The position numbers and the translations under genes are program-made. A DNA stretch of 24,000 nucleotides from Nostoc sp. (GTDB lineage Bacteria > Cyanobacteriota > Cyanobacteriia > Cyanobacteriales > Nostocaceae): NCBI RefSeq assembly GCF_036917755.1, contig NZ_JBALFC010000090.1, positions 46,205-70,204 of the forward strand, written 5' to 3'. Under the pieces are notes generated by a model. The model had not been told where the DNA came from. It made no database searches and saw only the letters and a list, made by a program, of their open reading frames with translations. Shown in pieces: positions 278 through 16,729 of the stretch. The first letter of the stretch is position 1, and every line of letters begins with the position of its first letter.

Positions 278-2500
278 TTAACCAAACTTACCTGCTGTTG
301 AGGCGATTAAGAAAGCCCCATAAGTTGCGATATAACCAACAGTAAAGTGAGTTAAGCCGACTAAACGGGCTTGAACAATTGACAGAGCAACGGGCTTATC
401 TCTCCAGTAGCCAAAGGATAGTGGAGTCTGTTCGTGTGCCCAGGCTAAGGTTTCGATTAACTCTTGCCAGTAACCTCGCCAGGTAATTAGGAACATGAAG
501 CTAACAGCCCAAGCTAAGTGTCCAAAGAGGAACATCCAAGCCCAAACAGCTAAGTTATTTGTGCCGTAAGGGTTATAGCCATTAATCAGCTGTGCGGAGT
601 TCGCCCAAAGGTAATCCCTGAACCAGCCCATGAGATAGGTAGAAGACTCATTAAATTGGGCGACATTGCCTTGCCAGATGCAAAGATGTTTCCAGTGCCA
701 GTAGAAGGTGACCCAACCAAGGGTGTTAAGCATCCAAAACACGCCGAGGTAGGAAGTATCCCACGCTGAAATATCGCAAGTGCCACCCCGTCCGGGACCA
801 TCGCAGGGGAAAGCATAGCCGAAGTCTTTTTTATCCGGCATTAGCTTAGTACCGCGAGCATCCAACGCCCCTTTGACTAAGATTAGGGTGGTGACATGTA
901 AACCGAGGGCGATCGCATGATGTACATAAAAATCACCAGGGCCAATTGTCAGGAATAACGAGTTGGTGCCGTTGTTAATTGCATCCAACCAACCTGGTAA
1001 CCAGACATTGCCATGATTGGGCCATGCTGTGGAAGCAATACTATCTGGATTTGACAGCAGCGTGTTAAACCCATACAACAGCTTACCGTTAGCCGACTGA
1101 ATAAACTGAGCAAATACAGGCTCAATCAATATTTGTTTGTCAGCCGCCCCAAAAGCTACTTCTACATCATTGTGGACGTATAAACCCAAAGTATGGAAGC
1201 CCAAGAACATCGATACCCAGCTAAGATGAGAAATAATCGCTTCTTTGTGCTTCAGTACCCGCTCTAAAACATTTCCTTGATTCTGTTCTGGGTCATAGTC
1301 CTTAATCCAGAAGATCGCCGCGTGGGAAAACGCCCCTACCATCAAGAAACCGGCAATGTATTGATGGTGTGTGTATAGTGCCGCCATTGTGGTAAAGTCC
1401 TTAGCGATAAACGCGTAAGGCGGCATGGAATACATATGCTGCGCCGCAAAGGAACTCGCTACACCCAAACAAGCTAGTGCCAAAGACAGTTGAAAATGCA
1501 AAGAATTATTAACGGTTTCGTACAGTCCTTGGTGGGGTAAGTTGAACGGGCCCTCAACTTTATTGCCATAGAAGGTCTTGGAGTCCATCATCTCTTTGAT
1601 GCTGTGACCGATACCCCAGTTAGTACGGTACATATGACCAGCAACAATGAAGATCACAGCGATCGCCAAATGGTGATGCGCCATATCTGTCAGCCACAAA
1701 GATTGAGTCTGGGGATGGAAACCACCCAAAAAGGTGAGAATTGCTGTTCCTGCGCCTTGGGTACTATTAAATACATGGGCTGATGTATCGGGATTTTGCG
1801 CGTATGCCCCCCAGTTCCCAGTAAAGAACGGTACTAAGCCACTTGGGTGTGGTGGGGTAGACAAGAAGTTATCCCAACCTACATGAATACCGCGAGATTC
1901 TGGAATAGCAACGTGTATTAAATGACCAGCCCAAGCTAAGGAACTGACACCAAACAAACCCGCTAAGTGGTGATTGAGACGAGGTTCTGCACTCTTGAAC
2001 CAAGCCAAGCCAGGACGATATTTGGGCTTTAAATGCAACGCGCCTGCAAACAAAAATACAGCCGCCAGGAAAACTAGGAAAATAGCCCCAGCATACAGTT
2101 CATCATTCGTCCGCAACCCGATGGTGTACCACCAGTGATAAACACCGGAGTAGCAAATATCTACCGGGTTACGTGCTCCCGCTTGGGTGTAAGCTTCAAT
2201 TGCCCCTGGCCCAAATTGAGCATCCCAAATCGCGTGAGCAATGGGACGGATATGTATGGGGTCTTTAAGCCAGATTTCAAAATTACCTTGCCAAGCAACG
2301 TGGAACAAAATTCCTGACGCCCACAGAAAGATAATTCCCAGATGACCGAAGTGAGAAGAAAAAATCCTTTGATAAAGATTTTCTTCCGTCATGCCATCTT
2401 GACTTTCAAAATCGTGAGCCGTGGCGATCGCATACCAAACGCGTCGCGTCGTTGGATCTTGTGCAAGGTCTTGGCTAAATTTGGGAAATTTAGTCGCCAT
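278..2500 (-). CDS. psaB2: Photosystem I P700 apoprotein A2, far-red paralog (740 aa)
   Basis: ORF 278..2794 is trimmed to the ATG at 2500, where the conserved PsaB N-terminus [20 protein letters not shown] begins. It carries the FX cluster motif [18 protein letters not shown] and the typical C-terminus ...[14 protein letters not shown]. The paralog number comes from cluster context. Confidence 0.95.
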
Positions 2501-2523
2501 AGTTTTCAAAGTTTTGAGATTTT

Positions 2524-2551
2524 CTCGTTCCCAGGCTGAGTCTGGGAATGC
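2524..2551 (-). repeat. TTCCCAG...CTGGGAA hairpin element in the psaB2 leader
   Basis: The minus strand reads GCATTCCCAGACTCAGCCTGGGAACGAG and ends 23 nt before the psaB2 ATG. A near-identical unit (GCATTCCCAGCCTGAGATTGGGAACGAG) lies at 13601..13628, upstream of psbA3. Confidence 0.6.
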
Positions 2552-2702
2552 ACAAAAAGAGGCTGAACCTTCTAAGAAACCAGGGAACAGGAAATGAGGT
2601 TGCCTTCTGGATGAGGAAGATGAGGAAGATGTTAATACTATTTCTCCCCCTGCCCCCTGCTCCCTTGCCTCCTGCCTCCTGGTTAGGCGAACAAAAGGAG
2701 TA

Positions 2703-5069
2703 TCATCCCAATGCCGACATTCGCGCCGAGAAGAACGCCCAAGTGGTGACAATTCCTCCCAAAAGGTAATGAGCGACCCCCACAGCCCGACCATGAGTGA
2801 TGCTCAAAGCGCGAGGCTGAATAGCAGGGGCAATTTTCAACTTGTTGTGCGCCCAAACAATTGATTCGATTAATTCTTGCCAGTAGCCACGACCACTAAA
2901 CAGGAACATCAGACTAAAGCCAAAAACGAAGTGTCCCGCTAAGAACATTAAGCCGTAGCCCGAAAGTGCTGAATTGTAGGATGTGATTACTTGCGTCGCC
3001 TGCGCCCAGAGGAAATCACGCAACCAGCCGTTATTGGTAATCGATGATTGGGCAAAGTTTCCGCCCGTAATGTGCGTCACTACCCCATCTGCATCTACCG
3101 TCCCCCAGACATCCGACTGCATCTTCCAGAAGAAGTGGAAAATCACCATTGACAAGGAGTTATACATCCAGAACAGACCCAGGAAAACATGATCCCAAGC
3201 TGATACCTGGCAAGTACCGCCTCGTCCCGGGCCGTCACAGGGGAAGCGGAAGCCCAAATTAGCTTTATCTGGAACTAAACGCGAACTGCGGGCAAACAAC
3301 ACACCCTTCAGCAGTACTAAAACAGTGACGTGAATTGTGAAGGCGTGAATGTGGTGAATCATAAAATCCGCAGTACCCAAACTAATGGGCATCATCGCCA
3401 CTTTGCCAGCCACTGCCACAATACCGCCGCCCCATGCATAGCTGACAGGTTCGTGCAAATTAGGTGCAGCAGTTCCCAATCCGCCCAGTTCCAGACCCCG
3501 CAAGCCACCGAAAGCATTACCCAGAGGTGCAGCAGCTTGGAGAGCTGGATTTCCGATGGTCATCGTCTGGATGTGTTGTATCCACTGAGCAAACACTGGC
3601 TGCAACTGAATTCCCGTATCCGAGAACATATCTTGGGGACGACCAAAAGCCCGCATGGTGTCGTTGTGACAGTACATCGCAAAGCTATGGAAGCCCAGGA
3701 ATTGACATACCCAAGCTAGGTGGGAGATGATTGCATCGCGGTGGCGGATCGTCCGATCCAACACGTTGTTGACATGGTCGGCTGGATTGTAGTCCCGTAC
3801 CATGAAGATGCCTGCGTGAGCCGCGCCCCCAACAATGCAGAAACCTGCAATCCATACGTGGTGGGTGAATAGCGATGTAACGGTCGCATAATCCGTTGCC
3901 AGATAAGGATAAGGGGGCATCGCGTACATGTGGTGCGCCACAAGGAGGCTGGCTGTCCCAAACTGTACTAGGTGGATAGATAGATTAGCGTGCCAGGAAG
4001 TCTCGAAAATTTTATCGAGGCCTTTATGACCGACAGGCCCAATAAAGCTGAATAATGGCAGCATCTTCGGAGTTCTGGCATCATCGAGCAGTTCCTTGAA
4101 GTCGTGGCCGATGCCCCAATTCGTGCGGTAGAAATGGCCGGCAATGATGAATAGCACTGCGATCGCTAAATGATGGTGTGCTATATCTGTTAACCATAAG
4201 CCGCCCGTCACGGGGTTCAGACCGCCCTTAAAGGTCAGGAAGTCAGCAAAATTTCCCCACTGCAAGGTGAAGAAAGGCACTACACCCGAAACGAAACCCC
4301 AACTTGCACTGGGATAGAGCTGATCCATCAACTTGGAATTCAAGATGAATTCGTGGGGTAAAGGAATGTCTCCTAGAGCTACCCCAGCATCTAACAACTT
4401 GTTAGTTGGTGAGGCAACATGAATCAGGTGTCCTGTCCAACCCAAAGAACCCAAGCCTAAAAGCCCTGCCAGGTGGTGGTTCATCATTGACTCCCAATTC
4501 AGGAACCACTCTAGCTTGGGAGCGCGTTTATGGTAGTGGAACCAGCCAGCAAACAGCATCACTGCTGCCATCACCAAGGCACCAATGGCGGTGCAATATA
4601 GCTGGTAGGTATTAGTAAAACCTTGCCCACGCCACATCTGGAAGAGTCCAGAGGTAATTTGAATACCGTGGAAGCCGCCGCCCACATCTGCATTCAAAAT
4701 TTCTTGACCAAATATCGGCCAGACAACTTGGGCGCTGGGTTTAATGGCAGTCGGGTTCGCCATCCAAGATTCAAAATTGGAAAAGCGAGCGCCATGAAAA
4801 TACATACCGCTCAACCAGATAAAGACTACAGCTAAGTGTCCGAAGTGAGCGGCGAAGATTTTGCGCGATACGTCTTGTAAATCGCTGGTATGAGTATCAA
4901 AATCGTGGGCGAGTGCGTGGAGGTTCCAAATCCAAGTGGTGGTTTTGGGACCTCTGACAAGGGTGCGGTCAAAGTGTCCTGGTTCCGACCACTTCTTAAA
5001 TGAAGTTGCCACCGGATCGTTATCAACCTCAACCCTTACCTTTTGCTCTCGCTCAGGAGTAATTGTCAT
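2703..5069 (-). CDS. psaA2: Photosystem I P700 apoprotein A1, far-red paralog (788 aa)
   Basis: The N-terminus is [16 protein letters not shown]...[12 protein letters not shown] and the FX motif is [26 protein letters not shown] Shine-Dalgarno sits about 8 nt upstream of the ATG at 5069. It is longer than the roughly 750-aa housekeeping PsaA. Confidence 0.95.
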
Positions 5070-5456: not shown

Positions 5457-5483
5457 AATAAAAATGAAGAACCTATGAAGGAA
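5457..5483 (-). promoter_or_regulatory. Candidate FaRLiP box (direct repeat YTTCAT, 11-bp spacing) upstream of psaA2
   Basis: The minus strand reads TTCCTTCATAGGTTCTTCATTTTTATT. It differs by 1 nt over the first 20 nt from the site upstream of chlF (12098..12130). A third TTCAT lies 21 bp further upstream (5496..5500). Confidence 0.45.
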
Positions 5484-5662: not shown

Positions 5663-6049
5663 TTATCGGTTCCAGCCCAGCACTGCTGAAACTTGGCTAG
5701 CTAGAGTCATTAAATCAAAAGGTTTAGCGATCGCAATTCTCACCCCCAATTTACCAAATTGCTCTAGTTCTTGAGATGATAATGTAGTCGTTAACAAAAT
5801 TACAGGTATATCTTGGGTTACGGAGTTATTCTGTAGTTGGTGCAAAATTGTAGATAAGTCTCTATCGGAGACAAAAGTATCCAGATCCACAAGGATAACA
5901 TCAACTTTTTGCGTCTTTGTTTTAGCGATCGCTTCTTGGCTCGATACCGCCGTCAGTACCTCCCAGCCTTCTACTGTCTCCAAGCAAAGCTGAGTTACTT
6001 CCCGAATAGCATTTTTATTCTCAATCAGTAAGATGCGTCGGGTTTTCAC
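5663..6049 (-). CDS. Single-domain CheY-like receiver, divergent paralog of RfpC with a degenerate acidic pocket (128 aa)
   Basis: GTG start with GGAAGG about 11 nt upstream. It aligns over its whole length with the adjacent RfpC (shared RIL.I, IRE.TQ.CLE, W.V.TA, DVIL.D, LQ.N..TQ.IPVILLT, KP.D..TL..QV). It keeps the acceptor Asp (ILVDLD), the Thr (LLTTT) and the Lys (AIAKPF). The acidic pair is E-N (LLIENKN) instead of D-D, and MPDMDG is replaced by DTFVSDRD. Confidence 0.8.
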   Translation of the reverse strand: MKTRRILLIENKNAIREVTQLCLETVEGWEVLTAVSSQEAIAKTKTQKVDVILVDLDTFVSDRDLSTILHQLQNNSVTQDIPVILLTTTLSSQELEQFGKLGVRIAIAKPFDLMTLASQVSAVLGWNR

Positions 6050-6123: not shown

Positions 6124-6153
6124 GGCAAAAAATATGAAAAACTAATGAAGAAT
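6124..6153 (-). promoter_or_regulatory. Candidate FaRLiP box upstream of the rfpC paralog
   Basis: The minus strand reads ATTCTTCATTAGTTTTTCATATTTTTTGCC. Two TTCAT units are spaced 11 bp apart (6145..6149 and 6134..6138) and are followed by a T-run. The site lies 75 to 105 nt upstream of the GTG at 6049. Confidence 0.45.
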
Positions 6154-6347: not shown

Positions 6348-6388
6348 CCCTACTCCCTACTCCCTACTCCCTACTCCCTACTCCCTAT
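6348..6388. repeat. STRR heptamer array CCCTACT x5 plus a partial unit
   Basis: Five exact tandem units span 6348..6382. The array overlaps the last three codons and the TAG stop of rfpC (stop at 6380..6378). Confidence 0.9.
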
Positions 6389-6764
6389 AACTATTAACTA
6401 TCAACGCCTGTGCAACTTGTTCAGACAGAGTAAAGGGATCGTAAGGCTTAGTAATTACTGCCGCCACTTTGAGTTGAGTAAAGTGACGCTGTTCGGCAGC
6501 CTGTGCTTTTGCTGTTAATAAAATCACGGGAATATTTTGGGTTTGAGGATTTGCTTGCAGATTCTCCAATGTCGTCAACCCATCCATATCCGGCATCATT
6601 ACGTCTAAGAGAATCACATCTGGATGTTCACAAGCAGCTTTGAGCAAACCTTCTTTACCAGAACCAGCTGTCACCACTTGCCATTCATTAGCTATCTCTA
6701 GACATATCTGAGTGGTTTCTCGGATATCTTCTTCATCATCAATAATCAAGATACGCTTGTTCAT
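6378..6764 (-). CDS. rfpC: CheY-type single-domain response regulator (128 aa)
   Basis: All canonical receiver residues are present: IIDDEED, ILLDVMMPDMDG, ILLTA and ITKP. It lies immediately downstream of rfpA, as in published FaRLiP clusters. Confidence 0.85.
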   Translation of the reverse strand: MNKRILIIDDEEDIRETTQICLEIANEWQVVTAGSGKEGLLKAACEHPDVILLDVMMPDMDGLTTLENLQANPQTQNIPVILLTAKAQAAEQRHFTQLKVAAVITKPYDPFTLSEQVAQALIVNSYRE

Positions 6765-6991: not shown

Positions 6992-9775
6992 TTAATGATT
7001 AATAGGTAATGTGAAATAAAATGTACTACCTTCCCCTAAAATACTTTCTGCCCAAATCTGCCCTCCGTGCTGTTGTATAATGCTGCGACAGATTGCTAAT
7101 CCCAAGCCAGTTCCCCCTTGATGACGCGAGTTAGAGGCATCGACTTGCTGAAAACGGTCAAAAATCTTTTCTAATTTATCCTCAGGAATTCCTCGCCCCT
7201 GGTCTTTTAGCTGGAATAGGATGTTGGAGTGGCAAGGGTCAGAGGAAGAACTAATCCCTTTTGTGACTTCTGTATTTATTTCTTTCCTAGTCTCTACTTG
7301 GGCGCTCAACCAAACTGTAAAACCTGGAGATGAAAATTTAATCGCGTTGCTGAGTAAGTTCGTGAGTGTCTGGATGATCCGGTCTGAATCTGCCCATAGC
7401 TGCACTGAAAGGGGCGTTAATTCTAGCTTAATCTCTGCTCTTTCGGCCATTGCCCGCATTTCGTCCACTGCTTGACTCATCAAGTCAGCTGCATTGCAGG
7501 TCTGTTTATACATCGTTGCTTTGCCGGAATTGATGCGTTCAATATCAAGGATGTCGTTAATCAGACGCACCAAACGGTTCGTGTTATCAAAGGCAATTTC
7601 CAGCATCCTCTGGCTTTTTTTTGGTTGATCATTTAAGGAACCACGCGCTAGTAAACCTAAAGCGCTGCGAATTGAGGTGAGAGGTGTCCGTAGTTCGTGA
7701 CTTACCACTGAGACAAACTCATCCTTCATTCGCTCGACTATCTGTCGCTCGGTAATATCTTTAAATATGACTACTGCTCCGACAATATCGCCTTGTTCTC
7801 TAATAGGTGTGCTTACATACTCGACTGGAAATTTCGACCCATCACAACGATAAAATATGTCATCAGAAATATGTTGTACTGCCCCAGTTTCCAGAGTGGC
7901 GCGAATCGGATTTTCTTCCCAGCAATAGGGAGCGCCGTCGGGCTGGGAATGTTTTACAATTCCGTGCATAAAGTGATTTTTTAGTTCTTTCACCCCAGAT
8001 AAAAGCATTCTGGCTGCTGCTGGATTGACAAAGGTGATGTTACCTTGGGAATTTAAACCGTAAATTCCCTCACCTGCGGAGTTCAAAATTAACTCGCTCT
8101 GTCGGCTGAGGCGTTCTAGAGAGGCTTGTGTTTGCTGGCGATCGCGTAGTGCCTGTTCGCGTTCGCTCATTTCCCGCAGCAATCTTTCATTAGCACGCTG
8201 TAACTCCGCCGTTCGCTCCTGTACTCGCTCCTCTAGTTCGGCATTCAAGGCAGAGATTTTTTTCTCTGCCTGCTTGCGTTCTTCAATATCTCTCTGTAAG
8301 TCAGCATTGAGTACGTGAACTTTCTGATACAGTTCATATTGATGAATTGCCATCGCAAAGTGACTGCCCAAAGCTTGGGCGAGTTCAATTTCTGCGGTTT
8401 TCCATTCTTGGGCTTGACTCCGCTTTAACTCTCGCCATGCTTCAAAGGATTGAACCGGGCGTTGATGTCGCGCATTATTGCGGTCAGGTCGTCGCGCCCA
8501 CAGAGTTTCTGTGTCTATTTCATGGCGAAAAATACTCAAGTAACCCAATATCTGCTGCCGATATTGCAAGCAAATAACCAATAAGCTGCGAATCCCAGCA
8601 TCAAAAAACGCCTGTGCCAAGTCTGACTGTAGTGCAGCCCGATGTAAATCAGTAATTGCCCACACTAGTTTTCCCTTCCCAACAGTCGCCTCCATGTTTA
8701 ACCACTCTTGCCAACCGGGATGTTCCTCGAAGAGGATGGGGGCATTGGGAATTGGGCATTGGGCATTGGGAATTGGGCATTGGGCATTGGGCATTGGGCA
8801 TGGGGCATTGGGCATTGGGCATGGGGCATTGGGCATTGGGCATGGGGCATTGGGCATTGTTATTCTTTGCTCCTCATCTCCCTCATCTCCCTCATCTCCC
8901 CCTGCTCCCCTCCTCCCCCATTCCCTCACTCCCCCACTCCCCCACTCCCCCACTCCCCCACCCCCTCGCTGCCCCATTCCCCAATCCCCACAGCTAAACA
9001 CCTGAGCCGCCTCACCTGGGTTTTGGGGAGCAATATAAATTCTGCCGCCAGCAGACTGTAAAGCAGATACAGTCAACTCCAGCGCTTGTTGTAACTGCAT
9101 TTCGGTCATGGAATGCAGTAGCTTGGCCACGCGGTTAATTGTGGCTTCTTGGTCAGCTTGGGCGCGGGTTTGTTCGAGGAGGGTATTTTGAGCGATCGCA
9201 ATTGATAATTGATCTGCAACCAGTTGCACTACCTGTAATTCCCGCTCGCTCACCTGTCGGGGTGAACTGTGATGAGATACCAACAACCCCCATAATTGGT
9301 TACGATGCAAAATTGGCACAACTAGAGAAGACTGCACTCCCATTGAGGTGAGGTATTCTACATGACATGGGTCTACGAGTCGAAACCGCATATTATTTTC
9401 ATCAAGTGGCTCGGTCGTTTCTAGACTATCTAAGGGACTCAGCCCAATTTGCTGGGCTGCAACATCCACAATTGAGCGCTGACGAGCTTTCAGAAACAAC
9501 TTCCGAGCTTCAAGTGGAATATCCTCAGCCGGAAAGTGTTGTCCTAATAGAGATGGTAAGCGATCGCAGTTAACCGACTCAGCCACAACCTCACCGCTAG
9601 CATCTGGATCAAAACGATACACTTTAACGCGGTCAGTCCCCAAGAATGTACGTACTTCAGCAACCGTTCCTGAGAGGATTGCTGGCAACTCTAGGGATTG
9701 ACGAATGCGGTTCATCATCCGATGTAACAGCGCTTCCAAGGAGTCGATCGGCTTTTGTTTTTTGTCTTTTGTCAT
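6992..9775 (-). CDS. rfpA: Knotless phytochrome sensor histidine kinase (927 aa)
   Basis: The N-terminal GAF domain has the bilin Cys-His (VDPCHVEYL, Cys137) with no PAS domain ahead of it. A second GAF/PHY-like domain carries the tongue-like motif [12 protein letters not shown] coiled coil and a PAS domain ([12 protein letters not shown]) follow. The kinase has the H-box [10 protein letters not shown] and the HATPase boxes [15 protein letters not shown] and [14 protein letters not shown] lies about 10 nt upstream of the ATG at 9775. Confidence 0.9.
8740..8962. repeat. Composite short tandem repeat block inside the rfpA coding sequence
   Basis: On the plus strand there are 17 tandem heptamers GGGCATT/GGGAATT/GGGCATG (8740..8858), then a CCTCATCTC 9-mer x3 (8872..8898), then an ACTCCCCC 8-mer x4 (about 8929..8960). 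On the rfpA strand this is translated as ...[73 protein letters not shown].... Confidence 0.95.
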
Positions 9776-9880: not shown

Positions 9881-10066
9881 TGATATGTTGGCAAATTGAT
9901 AGCGGGTCTAACCCATCAGCCTTAATCCATCTTAATTTCTTTAATTTCAGTGCGTTTCAACGCACTTTAGCTATTAGCCCGCAATTTATTGTCGGGCGGG
10001 AAAGCAACGCAAAACCAAGATTTTAGGTATGAGGTTTAACCCCTCGTAAATTGACCAACATGATCA
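9881..10066. mobile_element. Possible MITE-like element of about 186 bp with imperfect terminal inverted repeats
   Basis: TGATATGTTGGCAAATT (9881..9897) resembles the reverse complement of AATTGACCAACATGATCA (10049..10066), with about 15 of 18 positions matching and two indels. The interior hairpin AGTGCGTT..AACGCACT followed by TTAGCTATTAG resembles the unit at 11807..11835. Confidence 0.3.
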
Positions 10067-10099: not shown

Positions 10100-10381
10100 T
10101 ACAGCAGATTTCAAGGAAAGTGAAGTACACAACGATTCGTCTCAAAGCCAGGTATAAAGCCTGTTTTACTTCTGAATTCTGACTCCTGAGAGGATGTTTT
10201 AAAAGTCCTCTTGTCGGTAGCAAAACGTTCTAGATCCCCCTAAATCCCCCGATAAATTGGGGGACTTTGATTCTGGTTCCCCCCTTTTTAAGGGGGGCTA
10301 GGGGGGATCATTAAGCGCCTAAAATCACCGCCAAACACTTTTAAAACATCCTCTGACTCCTGAATTCTGAATTCTGCTGTA
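10100..10381. mobile_element. Copy A of a roughly 106-bp MITE (TA-flanked, TACAGCAGA... ends), interrupted by a second element
   Basis: It shares blocks of 16, 12 and 33 identical nt with copy B at 16585..16690. The ends TACAGCAGATTTCAAG and CTGAATTCTGCTGTA are inverted repeats. TA flanks both copies on both sides. The right end abuts the stop codon of the rfpB-like gene. Confidence 0.7.
10189..10354. mobile_element. Inner MITE of about 166 bp nested in copy A
   Basis: The 18-bp perfect terminal inverted repeats are AGAGGATGTTTTAAAAGT (10189..10206) and ACTTTTAAAACATCCTCT (10337..10354). It is flanked by an 8-bp direct repeat GACTCCTG (10181..10188 and 10355..10362). The interior holds the palindromes GATCCCCCTA...TAGGGGGGATC. 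Confidence 0.7.
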
Positions 10382-11485
10382 TCAATTATTTTCATCGTCT
10401 ACAACATAATGACAAAGTACTTTATCCAATTCTCTAAATGCAGGCTGCTCTAGTTCTCCAGAAAGAAGTTCTACTAAATGGCGAAGACGCAATGCCTCAT
10501 TTTGGTCAAGAGTAATTTGGGATAGCAATATTTGCTCTATGTGTTTAGCCAGACGTGAACCTTCCGCAAAGCCAAAAATCCCCAAAGCTCCCCCTAACTT
10601 ATGTGCTGCATGATATGCTTTTTGCCGTAATTCTTCAGAGAGATTGTTAGCTTGTAATTCGAGTGAGGCTTGTTGTAGAATTTCTAAGCGATCGCTACTG
10701 TGTACTTTCAACTTCTCCCACACAACTGCTAATGCTTCCCTAATCTGTGGCTTCCTCTTGCTTTGGCTTTTTTTTATTTGTCTTGAGGCTACAGAAGGTT
10801 TTTCTTCATCTGCAAATACTTTCAGACGATAACCCAAACCATAGACTGTTTCAATAAAATCAGTTGGTGCGCCAGCTTGCGTTAGTTTTTGCCGCAAACC
10901 CTTGATGTGAGATGTCACCGTATCTTCTTTAGGTGCTTCTTCTACAGACCAGAGGTGGTCTAAAATTTCACTGCGGCTGAAGACAATATGCTCGTTACGA
11001 AGAAAAAGCTCCAGTAAACGATACTCTTTAGGCGTTAAATTCAAACTATGAGAACCATAAGTCACTTCACAGCTACCAGGGTCAATACGCAGTTTTTCCC
11101 ATTTCATCACTGACAAAATGGGTGAATTTCGTCGCCGCAATAAAACGCGAATTCGAGCTAATAATTCCGATAGTTCAAAAGGTTTAACAACATAATCATC
11201 TGCTCCGGCATCTAATCCCATCACTTTGTGAGTGCTAGAATTTTGGCCTGTCAGTAGCATTATAGGTGTTTGATAATTATGGGAACGTAACCTCTGACAA
11301 AATTTTATGCCGTCCAATTTGGGCAGAATGACATCTAGCAAAATTAAGTCATAGCTAAAAGCTTCTACTAGCTCCCAACCAAGCAGACCATCAGCAGCAA
11401 TATCAACTACATAGTGTTGATTACCAAGGACACTTTCAAGTGTTTTGGTGATACACTCGTCATCTTCAACTAGTAAAATTCTCAT
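10382..11485 (-). CDS. rfpB: OmpR/PhoB-family response regulator with a C-terminal HPt domain, in the rfpB position (367 aa)
   Basis: The REC domain has LLVEDDE, ILLDVILPKLDG, MLLTG and VVKPF. The winged helix has LTPKEYRLLELFLRN and GLGYRL. The C-terminal domain is HPt-like (AYHAAHKLGGALGIFGF...AKHIEQ). It lies directly upstream of rfpA. The symbol is assigned by position only; the domain architecture differs from the published description (see findings). Confidence 0.7.
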   Translation of the reverse strand: MRILLVEDDECITKTLESVLGNQHYVVDIAADGLLGWELVEAFSYDLILLDVILPKLDGIKFCQRLRSHNYQTPIMLLTGQNSSTHKVMGLDAGADDYVVKPFELSELLARIRVLLRRRNSPILSVMKWEKLRIDPGSCEVTYGSHSLNLTPKEYRLLELFLRNEHIVFSRSEILDHLWSVEEAPKEDTVTSHIKGLRQKLTQAGAPTDFIETVYGLGYRLKVFADEEKPSVASRQIKKSQSKRKPQIREALAVVWEKLKVHSSDRLEILQQASLELQANNLSEELRQKAYHAAHKLGGALGIFGFAEGSRLAKHIEQILLSQITLDQNEALRLRHLVELLSGELEQPAFRELDKVLCHYVVDDENN

Positions 11486-11772
11486 TCAATATCACCCTAC
11501 TGTACCTAAACACTAGGACTTCATCTACTACTAGCACAGCACGGCGCAAATAGAGCAATCATTGAAAATCAATGAAACCCTTAAGGTATATGAATTACGA
11601 ATTACGTTAGTGAGTCTTGTCTACGACATGCTGTTCGCGTTCAAGCGTCATTACGAATTACGAATTCGGCCTTGCAGTACTAGCATCTGTGGTGAACAAG
11701 TTTATTTGAAAATCATTAGACCTCTTATAAAAGTCGAAAAACCGCCCGAAAGTTTATTTTCGGTAATAGCTC

Positions 11773-11855
11773 AAGTCGGTTTCAACCGACTTATGACAGT
11801 AGTTTTAGTCCGTTGAAACGGACTTTTGCTATTAGGCAGTGACTTAAGTCACTGG
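11773..11855. repeat. Three consecutive short hairpin units (dispersed-repeat family)
   Basis: AAGTCGGTT-TC-AACCGACTT spans 11773..11791. AGTCCGTT-GA-AACGGACT spans 11807..11824. CAGTGACTTAAGTCACTG spans 11838..11855. The second unit plus TTTGCTATTAGG resembles 9949..9978. Confidence 0.6.
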
Positions 11856-12097
11856 CGGTTCTGGCAGTTCAAGTATTTTTGCAATAGGTTTATTATTGAC
11901 TGTTCTCTGATCCAAAACTTATACAGCTTCAAGCAAATTTACATTTCTTTACTTATTTTGATAATTTAAACGTGACTTATATATTCATTTTTTAATGCCT
12001 CTATCTATTTCTAGAGCCGTCATTGAAGAGGCCAGGGCTAGGTCTTTCCCCTCTGACCTTTCTGATGAATATTGTTAACTTATGTGAAGATATCAAC

Positions 12098-12130
12098 TTC
12101 CTTCATTGGTTCTTCATGTTTTTTTATTAT
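12098..12130 (+). promoter_or_regulatory. Candidate FaRLiP box plus -10-like TATTAT upstream of chlF
   Basis: The sequence is TTCCTTCATTGGTTCTTCATGTTTTTTTATTAT. The TTCAT units at 12102 and 12113 are spaced 11 bp apart. TTCATT is followed 17 nt later by TATTAT. The site lies about 135 nt upstream of the chlF start. Confidence 0.45.
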
Positions 12131-16545: not shown

Positions 16546-16584
16546 GGAAGAGTTAGGAGTTAGGAGTTAAGAATTTTGAATTAA

Positions 16585-16690
16585 TACAGCAGATTTCAAG
16601 TTGATGAAGTACACAAGCTAAGTCTTAAAGCTAGGTATAAAGCCTGTTTTACTTCTGAATTCTGAATTCTGAATTCTGAATTATGCTGTA
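16585..16690. mobile_element. Copy B (uninterrupted, 106 bp) of the TACAGCAGA MITE
   Basis: It is TA-flanked, with inverted ends TACAGCAGATTTCAAG and CTGAATTATGCTGTA. It contains an internal CTGAATT heptamer run. It is homologous to 10100..10381 without the nested element. Confidence 0.7.
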
Positions 16691-16729
16691 ACTTCTAACT
16701 ATTACCAATTACCAATTACCTTTTTAACA

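Follow-up and report, generated by a model that had tools for sequence, protein, structure and literature searches.

Short-form RfpB in a Nostoc far-red light photoacclimation cluster: an old receiver loss, a family-wide HPt domain, and a proposed His-Asp-His-Asp relay

RfpB, the master activator of photoacclimation to far-red light (FaRLiP), is generally described as a winged helix with a CheY domain on either side, an architecture typified by the 622-amino-acid (aa) protein of the Chroococcidiopsis thermalis type. However, Gan, Shen, and Bryant reported that RfpB of the Section 4/5 cyanobacteria is without the C-terminal receiver and nearly 300 aa shorter, the domain probably having been deleted in an ancestor (Life 2014, PMC4390838, Discussion). 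Because it is absent from all Section 4/5 members in that report, the C-terminal receiver does not define the RfpB family. The short architecture is that of a working master regulator, because deletion of the short rfpB gene of Chlorogloeopsis fritschii PCC 9212, one of two strains in which the requirement for rfpB was shown genetically, abolishes FaRLiP (Zhao et al. 2015, PMC4658448). In the published scheme RfpA phosphorylates RfpC, which then transfers the phosphoryl group to RfpB, and RfpC is genetically required (PMC4658448). Here we analyze a stretch of 24,000 nucleotides (nt) from Nostoc sp. (contig NZ_JBALFC010000090.1, positions 46,205 to 70,204), called the window below, and in it the open reading frame (ORF) at positions 10382 to 11485 of the minus strand, which encodes a 367-aa protein. 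Very probably one explanation accounts for this gene: it is a short-form orthologue of RfpB, the FaRLiP master activator of heterocyst-forming cyanobacteria, with an old truncation and a function that would run through a His-Asp-His-Asp relay. It belongs, as an ordinary copy, to the short-RfpB class already published, and in that sense the central claim is already known; the window reveals no new regulator, short RfpB having been documented and genetically validated before.

As judged by gene order and Pfam matches, the window contains a complete FaRLiP cluster. The rfpB gene is the first of an rfpB-rfpA-rfpC unit on the minus strand and lies amid far-red paralogs of photosystem I, photosystem II, and allophycocyanin genes. 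The next gene, rfpA (6992 to 9775, minus strand), encodes a 927-aa knotless phytochrome histidine kinase (GAF-PHY-PAS-HisKA-HATPase in Pfam), and rfpC (6378 to 6764, minus strand), assigned by Pfam and synteny, encodes a 128-aa stand-alone receiver with the acidic pocket and Asp intact (Response_reg, 87 bits). Also on the minus strand are psaB2/psaA2-like genes at 278 to 5069, while the plus strand carries two PsbA-family genes, four phycobiliprotein genes, and genes for an ApcE-like linker and for PsbD- and PsbC-like proteins. Because this order is colinear with the FaRLiP clusters of Fischerella (L084), Chroococcidiopsis (L086), and C. fritschii PCC 9212 (L209), the ORF at 10382 to 11485 stands at the rfpB position of the unit; rfpA has the same position in these three loci and in those of Aulosira (L082) and Richelia (L001).

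The nearest relatives of the window's RfpB are in Nostoc and Aulosira. It is 92 to 93% identical to 365- to 367-aa proteins of Nostoc spp. and of Aulosira sp. DedQUE10, and the nearest 90%-identity protein cluster has 26 Nostoc members, again of 365 to 367 aa. Identity to the 395-aa RfpB of C. fritschii PCC 9212 (WP_016873417) is 66% over 364 aa, from residue 1 to the VxDD motif, and identity to the Chroococcidiopsis protein is 62%.

The order of domains is REC-wHTH-HPt, that is, a receiver (REC), a winged helix (wHTH), and a histidine phosphotransfer (HPt) domain, and all three were recognized by Pfam. The N-terminal receiver covers residues 3 to 113 (11147 to 11479, minus strand; Response_reg, 102 bits) and carries D8, D9, D51, T79, and K101, all intact, with the Asp51 codon at 11333 to 11335. 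The OmpR/PhoB-type winged helix covers residues 147 to 221 (10823 to 11047, minus strand; Trans_reg_C, 82 bits) and was also recognized with an AlphaFold2 model and Foldseek. The HPt domain extends over residues ~241 to 345 (10451 to 10765, minus strand), and its Pfam Hpt match, at residues 256 to 341, scored 30.9 bits against a gathering cut-off of 24.6, with 31 to 40 bits in seven homologs. The candidate phospho-acceptor, His295 (codon at 10601 to 10603, motif AAHKLGGALGIFGF), lies within AAHKLGGALG. When the last 118 residues were compared with sequences in the PDB, the best match was the CheA P1 domain 1tqg, in which the phospho-His lines up with the His of the query, and a profile of 22 homologous C-terminal domains matched CheA P1 domains, the HPt 3myf, and the BarA HPt.

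Structure prediction pointed the same way, though less firmly. The AlphaFold2 model of full-length RfpB, built with an alignment of 84 sequences (mean pLDDT, the model's confidence score, of 80), has four helices at residues 241 to 278, 284 to 303, 307 to 321, and 328 to 345, with pLDDT values of ~75 to 93 per 10-residue block; His295 is on the second of them. A Foldseek search with this model returned OmpR/PhoB regulators as top matches (MtrA, RpaA, PhoP, and PrrA) and was uninformative about the C-terminal domain. With the HPt domain in isolation, HPt domains ranked first (E values of 0.06 to 1, TM scores of 0.5 to 0.6); these matches are weak because the model, with a pLDDT of 67, was made from a single sequence. 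A preliminary description of this DNA, made from its letters alone, had proposed the REC-wHTH-HPt order, the missing second receiver, and the HPt nature of the C-terminal domain, and on all of these it was right. Its statement that RfpB is published with two receivers is true of the general descriptions but passes over the short Section 4/5 proteins of PMC4390838. The C-terminal CheY-like receiver of the JSC-1 and Chroococcidiopsis descriptions was not detected in the window's RfpB by Pfam, alignment, or tblastn.

The place where the protein ends is best understood from its longer homologs. RfpB homologs fall into length classes of ~361 to 407, 422 to 441, 517 to 522, and 598 to 643 aa. The long forms carry three Pfam receiver stretches (REC1-wHTH-HPt-REC-REC), and the full-length architecture of the family, as read from the alignments, is REC1-wHTH-HPt-(degenerate REC)-REC. 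The middle receiver has degenerated: of 81 long forms, only 37 have Asp at the phospho-site and only 3 keep the Lys, whereas all the catalytic residues of the C-terminal receiver are fixed. Every short form of 361 to 407 aa stops a few residues past a VxDD or VEEE motif, which aligns with the LLVVDDD of the ~600- to 640-aa homologs, the first beta strand and acidic pair of their middle receiver. The tail of the window's protein, residues 354 to 367 (...LCHYVVDDENN; 10385 to 10426, minus strand), has pLDDT values below 50 and is, by the alignments, a relic of that strand and acidic pair. Because of this alignment, the earlier reading of VVDDENN as the start of a receiver was correct.

The same short end point was found in Aulosira, Nostoc, Calothrix, Fischerella, and C. 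fritschii PCC 9212, and because one end point is common to so many genera, the receiver loss is old and shared, nothing peculiar to this locus. Three of these lineages have it at the rfpB position: Aulosira sp. DedQUE10 has a 365-aa RfpB followed by a 124-bp spacer of heptamer repeats, free of miniature inverted-repeat transposable elements (MITEs), and then rfpA; Fischerella has a 387-aa short RfpB whose gene shares its last 17 bp with rfpA; and for the 395-aa short RfpB of C. fritschii PCC 9212 the overlap is 41 bp. The Aulosira and window rfpB coding sequences are near-identical as far as GACGATG, and their divergence is confined to the last three codons, which read ENN in the window, VRE in Aulosira, and VGD in Nostoc. 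No remnant of a receiver was detected between 9776 and 10381, as the preliminary description had also reported: tblastn with ten long-form C termini gave only noise there (best score of 18 bits, E = 8), and its real matches in the window were the paralogous receivers only, namely, REC1, rfpC, and a second stand-alone receiver. The idea that RfpB was truncated or remodelled in this lineage holds in comparison with long RfpB, against which the protein is indeed truncated, but the truncation is neither specific to the lineage nor novel, the end being the same in Aulosira, Fischerella, and C. fritschii. Nor do the close relatives compared here have a longer gene, which the preliminary description had suggested looking for: the proteins of Aulosira and Nostoc are likewise 365 to 367 aa and end at the same point.

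In contrast to the C-terminal receivers, the HPt domain is shared by the whole family. Its His is invariant in 103/103 homologs (81 long and 22 short), and in the same homologs D8, D51, T79, and K101 of REC1 are invariant and D9 is replaced once, by E. Because the HPt and its His are invariant in short and long forms alike, an HPt step would apply to the entire RfpB family, and because none of the homologs examined, short or long, is without the domain, the alternative put forward earlier, either a truncation or an HPt step, was a false choice. The published RfpA-RfpC-RfpB scheme is chemically awkward as an Asp-to-Asp transfer; if the phosphoryl group instead passed through His295, the result would be a standard His-Asp-His-Asp relay. 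A family-wide HPt with an invariant His would give that scheme a chemically sensible route. In the likely relay, far-red light would switch the RfpA kinase, and the phosphoryl group would move from RfpA to the Asp of the single-domain receiver RfpC, from RfpC to His295 of the RfpB HPt, and from His295 to Asp51 of the RfpB N-terminal receiver. Phospho-RfpB would then dimerize, and its winged helix would bind direct repeats overlapping the -35 of FaRLiP promoters. The C-terminal receiver module of the long forms would be a dispensable modulator.

The HPt might be conserved without being the point at which phosphate enters, a reading that we consider rather unlikely. RfpA would then phosphorylate Asp51 directly, RfpC would be a sink or connector, and the HPt would serve in dimerization, back-transfer, or a phosphatase route. 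REC1 is indeed a complete canonical OmpR-family receiver, and published models do not settle what RfpC does (PMC4658448). However, all 103 homologs, across wide divergence, have the same His and the same AAHKLxGxLGxFG motif around it, and a purely structural domain is not expected to fix a phospho-acceptor His; in addition, the genetic requirement for RfpC fits an obligatory relay better than it fits a sink. The genetics of RcaC, reportedly from Li and Kehoe in 2005, are also said to implicate the HPt His. On the other side, several points count against the relay through His295 and the single ancestral loss. The HPt route is drawn from analogy with RcaC and from conservation, direct transfer from RfpA to REC1 is chemically possible, and the E values of the isolated HPt model in Foldseek are weak. 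The term HPt has no occurrence in the FaRLiP papers PMC4390838 and PMC4658448, and the searchable literature yielded no phosphotransfer or DNA-binding data for any RfpB. A literature search for RfpB with HPt and for RcaC with HPt returned nothing relevant; subscription reviews may already depict an HPt in RfpB. (The JGI product names of RfpB homologs do mention HPt.) Finally, in neighbor-joining (NJ) bootstraps the short forms were recovered as one clade in 0/100, which leaves a deletion in one ancestor unproven; because the backbone of the NJ tree is weak throughout, it supports no conclusion on one versus several losses.

Two other explanations concern the gene itself. We find it hardly credible that it is not RfpB but a paralog of the RcaC type found in a FaRLiP cluster by chance. 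RcaC-like proteins share the REC-wHTH-HPt order, and Nostoc favosum encodes a 605-aa homolog with 50% identity at a locus of non-FaRLiP context (L002); this probable RcaC-like paralog was the RcaC-type sequence compared here, RcaC itself being likened by description. Yet the rfpB-rfpA-rfpC order is conserved inside a complete FaRLiP cluster, and the window's protein is 62 to 93% identical to proteins at the rfpB position versus ~50% to the non-FaRLiP paralog. It is also highly improbable that MITEs recently truncated rfpB in this lineage and left a decaying or remodelled gene. What prompts the idea is that MITE 2 begins on the base right after the TGA stop (10382 to 10384) and that the closest relatives have other codons at the last three positions. 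But the same end is found without MITEs in Aulosira, and also in the 26 Nostoc proteins, in Fischerella, and in C. fritschii, the latter two with rfpB overlapping rfpA; moreover, no remnant lies downstream, and all catalytic residues are intact. Because Aulosira ends at the same point without MITEs, the MITEs are not the cause of the receiver loss. For that loss the explanation is refuted, and it survives for the last three residues only: the nested MITEs came after the truncation and at most changed the last three codons, giving the ENN tail.

The two MITE-like insertions that the preliminary description placed directly after the stop are real, and they are nested. The spacer between rfpB and rfpA is 606 bp in the window and holds both. 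MITE 1 (10189 to 10354) is 166 bp long with perfect 18-nt terminal inverted repeats, and it is flanked by an 8-bp target-site duplication, GACTCCTG, at 10181 to 10188 and 10355 to 10362. It lies inside MITE 2 (10100 to 10381), an element of ~110 bp with 14-nt inverted ends (TACAGCAGATTTCA / TGAATTCTGCTGTA) that MITE 1 splits; no target-site duplication is clear for MITE 2. At least 10 near-full-length copies of MITE 1, with 80 to 85% identity, are present in unrelated metagenome contigs. MITE 2, with its TACAGCAG ends, has a second copy in the window at ~16572 to 16700, between two apc genes, which is 86% identical over 99 nt and has identical ends. A Logan contig with an identical rfpB gene breaks 29 bp past the gene, which fits a repeat there. 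On the other side of rfpB, the spacer toward the chlF-like gene has, relative to Aulosira, a 193-bp insertion (11699 to 11891) carrying small stem-loop repeats of the GTCCGTTTCAACGGAC type. A unit of this kind stands, inverted, at 9949 to 9973 downstream of rfpB, and the gene is bracketed in this way by related small repeats.

The C-terminal module is evolutionarily labile, and its loss is not universal in the Nostocales. The only loci that proved informative in a contig scan with generic receiver/OmpR peptide patterns were L001, L002, and L004; the other matches were mostly unrelated OmpR-family loci. The metagenome-assembled genome (MAG) of Richelia sp. SL_2_1 (Nostocales; L001, 8001 to 9869) has a 622-aa long RfpB within its FaRLiP cluster. 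In Calothrix parasitica NIES-267 (Nostocales; L207, 8001 to 9272) and its relatives, RfpB is 422 to 441 aa and stops inside the middle receiver, with rfpA 116 bp further on; this class was monophyletic in 86/100 NJ bootstraps. Given the long form of the Richelia MAG and the different truncation of C. parasitica, the 2014 account, in which one loss covers all of Section 4/5, is incomplete. In the Coleofasciculaceae, forms of 517 to 522 aa are without the middle receiver only. Finally, the MAG of Leptolyngbyaceae cyanobacterium RU_5_1 (L208, 8001 to 10047) appears to have rfpB in two pieces ~1 kb upstream of rfpA: an ORF of 368 aa with REC-wHTH-HPt and, after it, a receiver ORF of its own with 196 aa. 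Fission of the gene could account for this split, as could a frameshift or an error in the MAG.

From these variants and the conservation of the HPt one may draw a wider proposal, which we hold tentatively and to which we lean slightly less than to its contrary: the HPt His would be the obligatory entry to a four-step relay (RfpA-RfpC-HPt-REC1) in all FaRLiP organisms, and the C-terminal module would be dispensable and would have been shed in several independent ways. These would be loss at the first beta strand of the middle receiver in most Nostocales, a stop inside the middle receiver in the C. parasitica clade, an internal deletion of that receiver in the 517- to 522-aa forms of the Coleofasciculaceae, and fission in the Leptolyngbyaceae MAG. 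If this proposal is true, obligatory entry at the HPt would account for the need for RfpC, the single-domain receiver, and the full forms in some genomes assigned to the Nostocales would revise the 2014 statement that the loss happened once, at the base of Sections 4/5.

The window has a second stand-alone receiver gene (5663 to 6049, minus strand), whose 128-aa product is a paralog of RfpC with 45% identity to it. Its phospho-site still has Asp, and the Thr and Lys are likewise retained, but the acidic pair is degenerate, E-N instead of D-D (IENKN versus IDDEE). Equivalent genes are present in C. fritschii PCC 9212 (also in PMC4658448), in the Richelia MAG, which has the long RfpB, and in C. 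parasitica NIES-267, and the presence of the second receiver does not correlate with the short form of RfpB. Descent of this second receiver from the one that RfpB lost was considered and rejected: none of its matches to RfpB domains exceeds 32 bits, it resembles RfpC instead, and it coexists with a long RfpB in Richelia.

OmpR/PhoB-type activators are typically associated with direct repeats at the -35. In the window, a direct repeat of the form TTCYTTCAT-N2-3-GTTCTTCAT, followed ~9 to 10 nt further on by a -10-like TAnnnT, precedes the chlF-like, psaA2-like, and second-receiver genes, and we regard this conserved repeat as a candidate RfpB binding site. At the chlF-like gene (12099 to 12117, plus strand) it reads TCCTTCAT-TGG-TTCTTCAT, followed by a T-rich spacer and TATTAT. 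A pattern scan placed the candidate box upstream of the psaA2-like gene at 5464 to 5482 (minus strand), and that of the second receiver is at 6134 to 6152 (minus strand), ~85 nt upstream of the gene, with 1 or 2 mismatches depending on the scan pattern. The window has 3 matches where 0.04 were expected. In 140 kb of seven FaRLiP loci, from five or more genera, there were 19 matches versus 16 in 1.78 Mb of unrelated loci, a ~15-fold enrichment. The box stands at equivalent promoter positions in Aulosira, Fischerella, Chroococcidiopsis, Richelia, C. parasitica, and the Leptolyngbyaceae MAG. Our literature search found no published RfpB binding motif, and such motifs were still being sought as of 2023 (PMC10127269). 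If the candidate box is bound by RfpB, it would be useful for far-red-inducible expression systems.

Between the GAF and PHY regions of the neighbor gene rfpA are an array of 17 in-frame GGGCATT heptamers (8740 to 8859) and a period-8 array (8878 to 8982), which together encode MPNAPCP-type repeats and a Gly/Glu-rich stretch and bring RfpA to 927 aa, versus 853 to 888 aa in relatives. Nostoc sp. C052 is reported to have an RfpA-like gene and no detectable FaRLiP cluster (PMC9415938), yet a 365-aa RfpB-like protein of C052 falls into the same 90%-identity cluster as the nearest relatives of the window's protein, and the window itself has the full set of FaRLiP genes.

Among described systems, the closest is the short RfpB of Section 4/5, as in C. 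fritschii PCC 9212 (WP_016873417), Fischerella thermalis, and Calothrix sp. PCC 7507, with which the window's protein shares the rfpB-rfpA-rfpC position, the REC-wHTH-HPt order, and the VxDD end. It differs in having a slightly shorter linker between the wHTH and the HPt (367 versus 387 to 395 aa for the whole protein) and a unique set of last three residues, and the gene is separated from rfpA by a long, MITE-laden spacer, whereas the others overlap rfpA or leave a short gap. The long RfpB of the C. thermalis type shares the operon position and is homologous over its first ~350 residues; its two further receiver stretches, the degenerate middle one and the conserved C-terminal one, are both absent here.

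RcaC of Fremyella diplosiphon, the regulator of type 3 chromatic acclimation, has an N-terminal receiver, an OmpR-type DNA-binding domain, an HPt, and then one or more C-terminal receivers. The paper of Kehoe and Grossman (1997) on RcaE-RcaF-RcaC has a four-step phosphorelay in its title. The resemblance of the window's protein to the first three RcaC domains, proposed in the preliminary description, is borne out, and it extends to those three only. The systems share the sequence of receiver, winged helix, and HPt, and each has a photoreceptor kinase and a single-domain receiver as partners (RcaE/RcaF versus RfpA/RfpC). RcaC differs in keeping its C-terminal receiver or receivers, in responding to green and red light through a cyanobacteriochrome, in binding the L-box, and in lying outside FaRLiP clusters; the neighbors of the window's gene are rfpA and rfpC, with no cyanobacteriochrome kinase. 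Unlike the Spo0F-Spo0B-Spo0A and Sln1-Ypd1-Ssk1 relays, the proposed RfpB relay would have its HPt fused to the terminal regulator itself. The logic would nevertheless be that of the Spo0 and Sln1 relays, in which a kinase, a single-domain receiver, a His phosphotransferase, and the receiver of the regulator act in turn.

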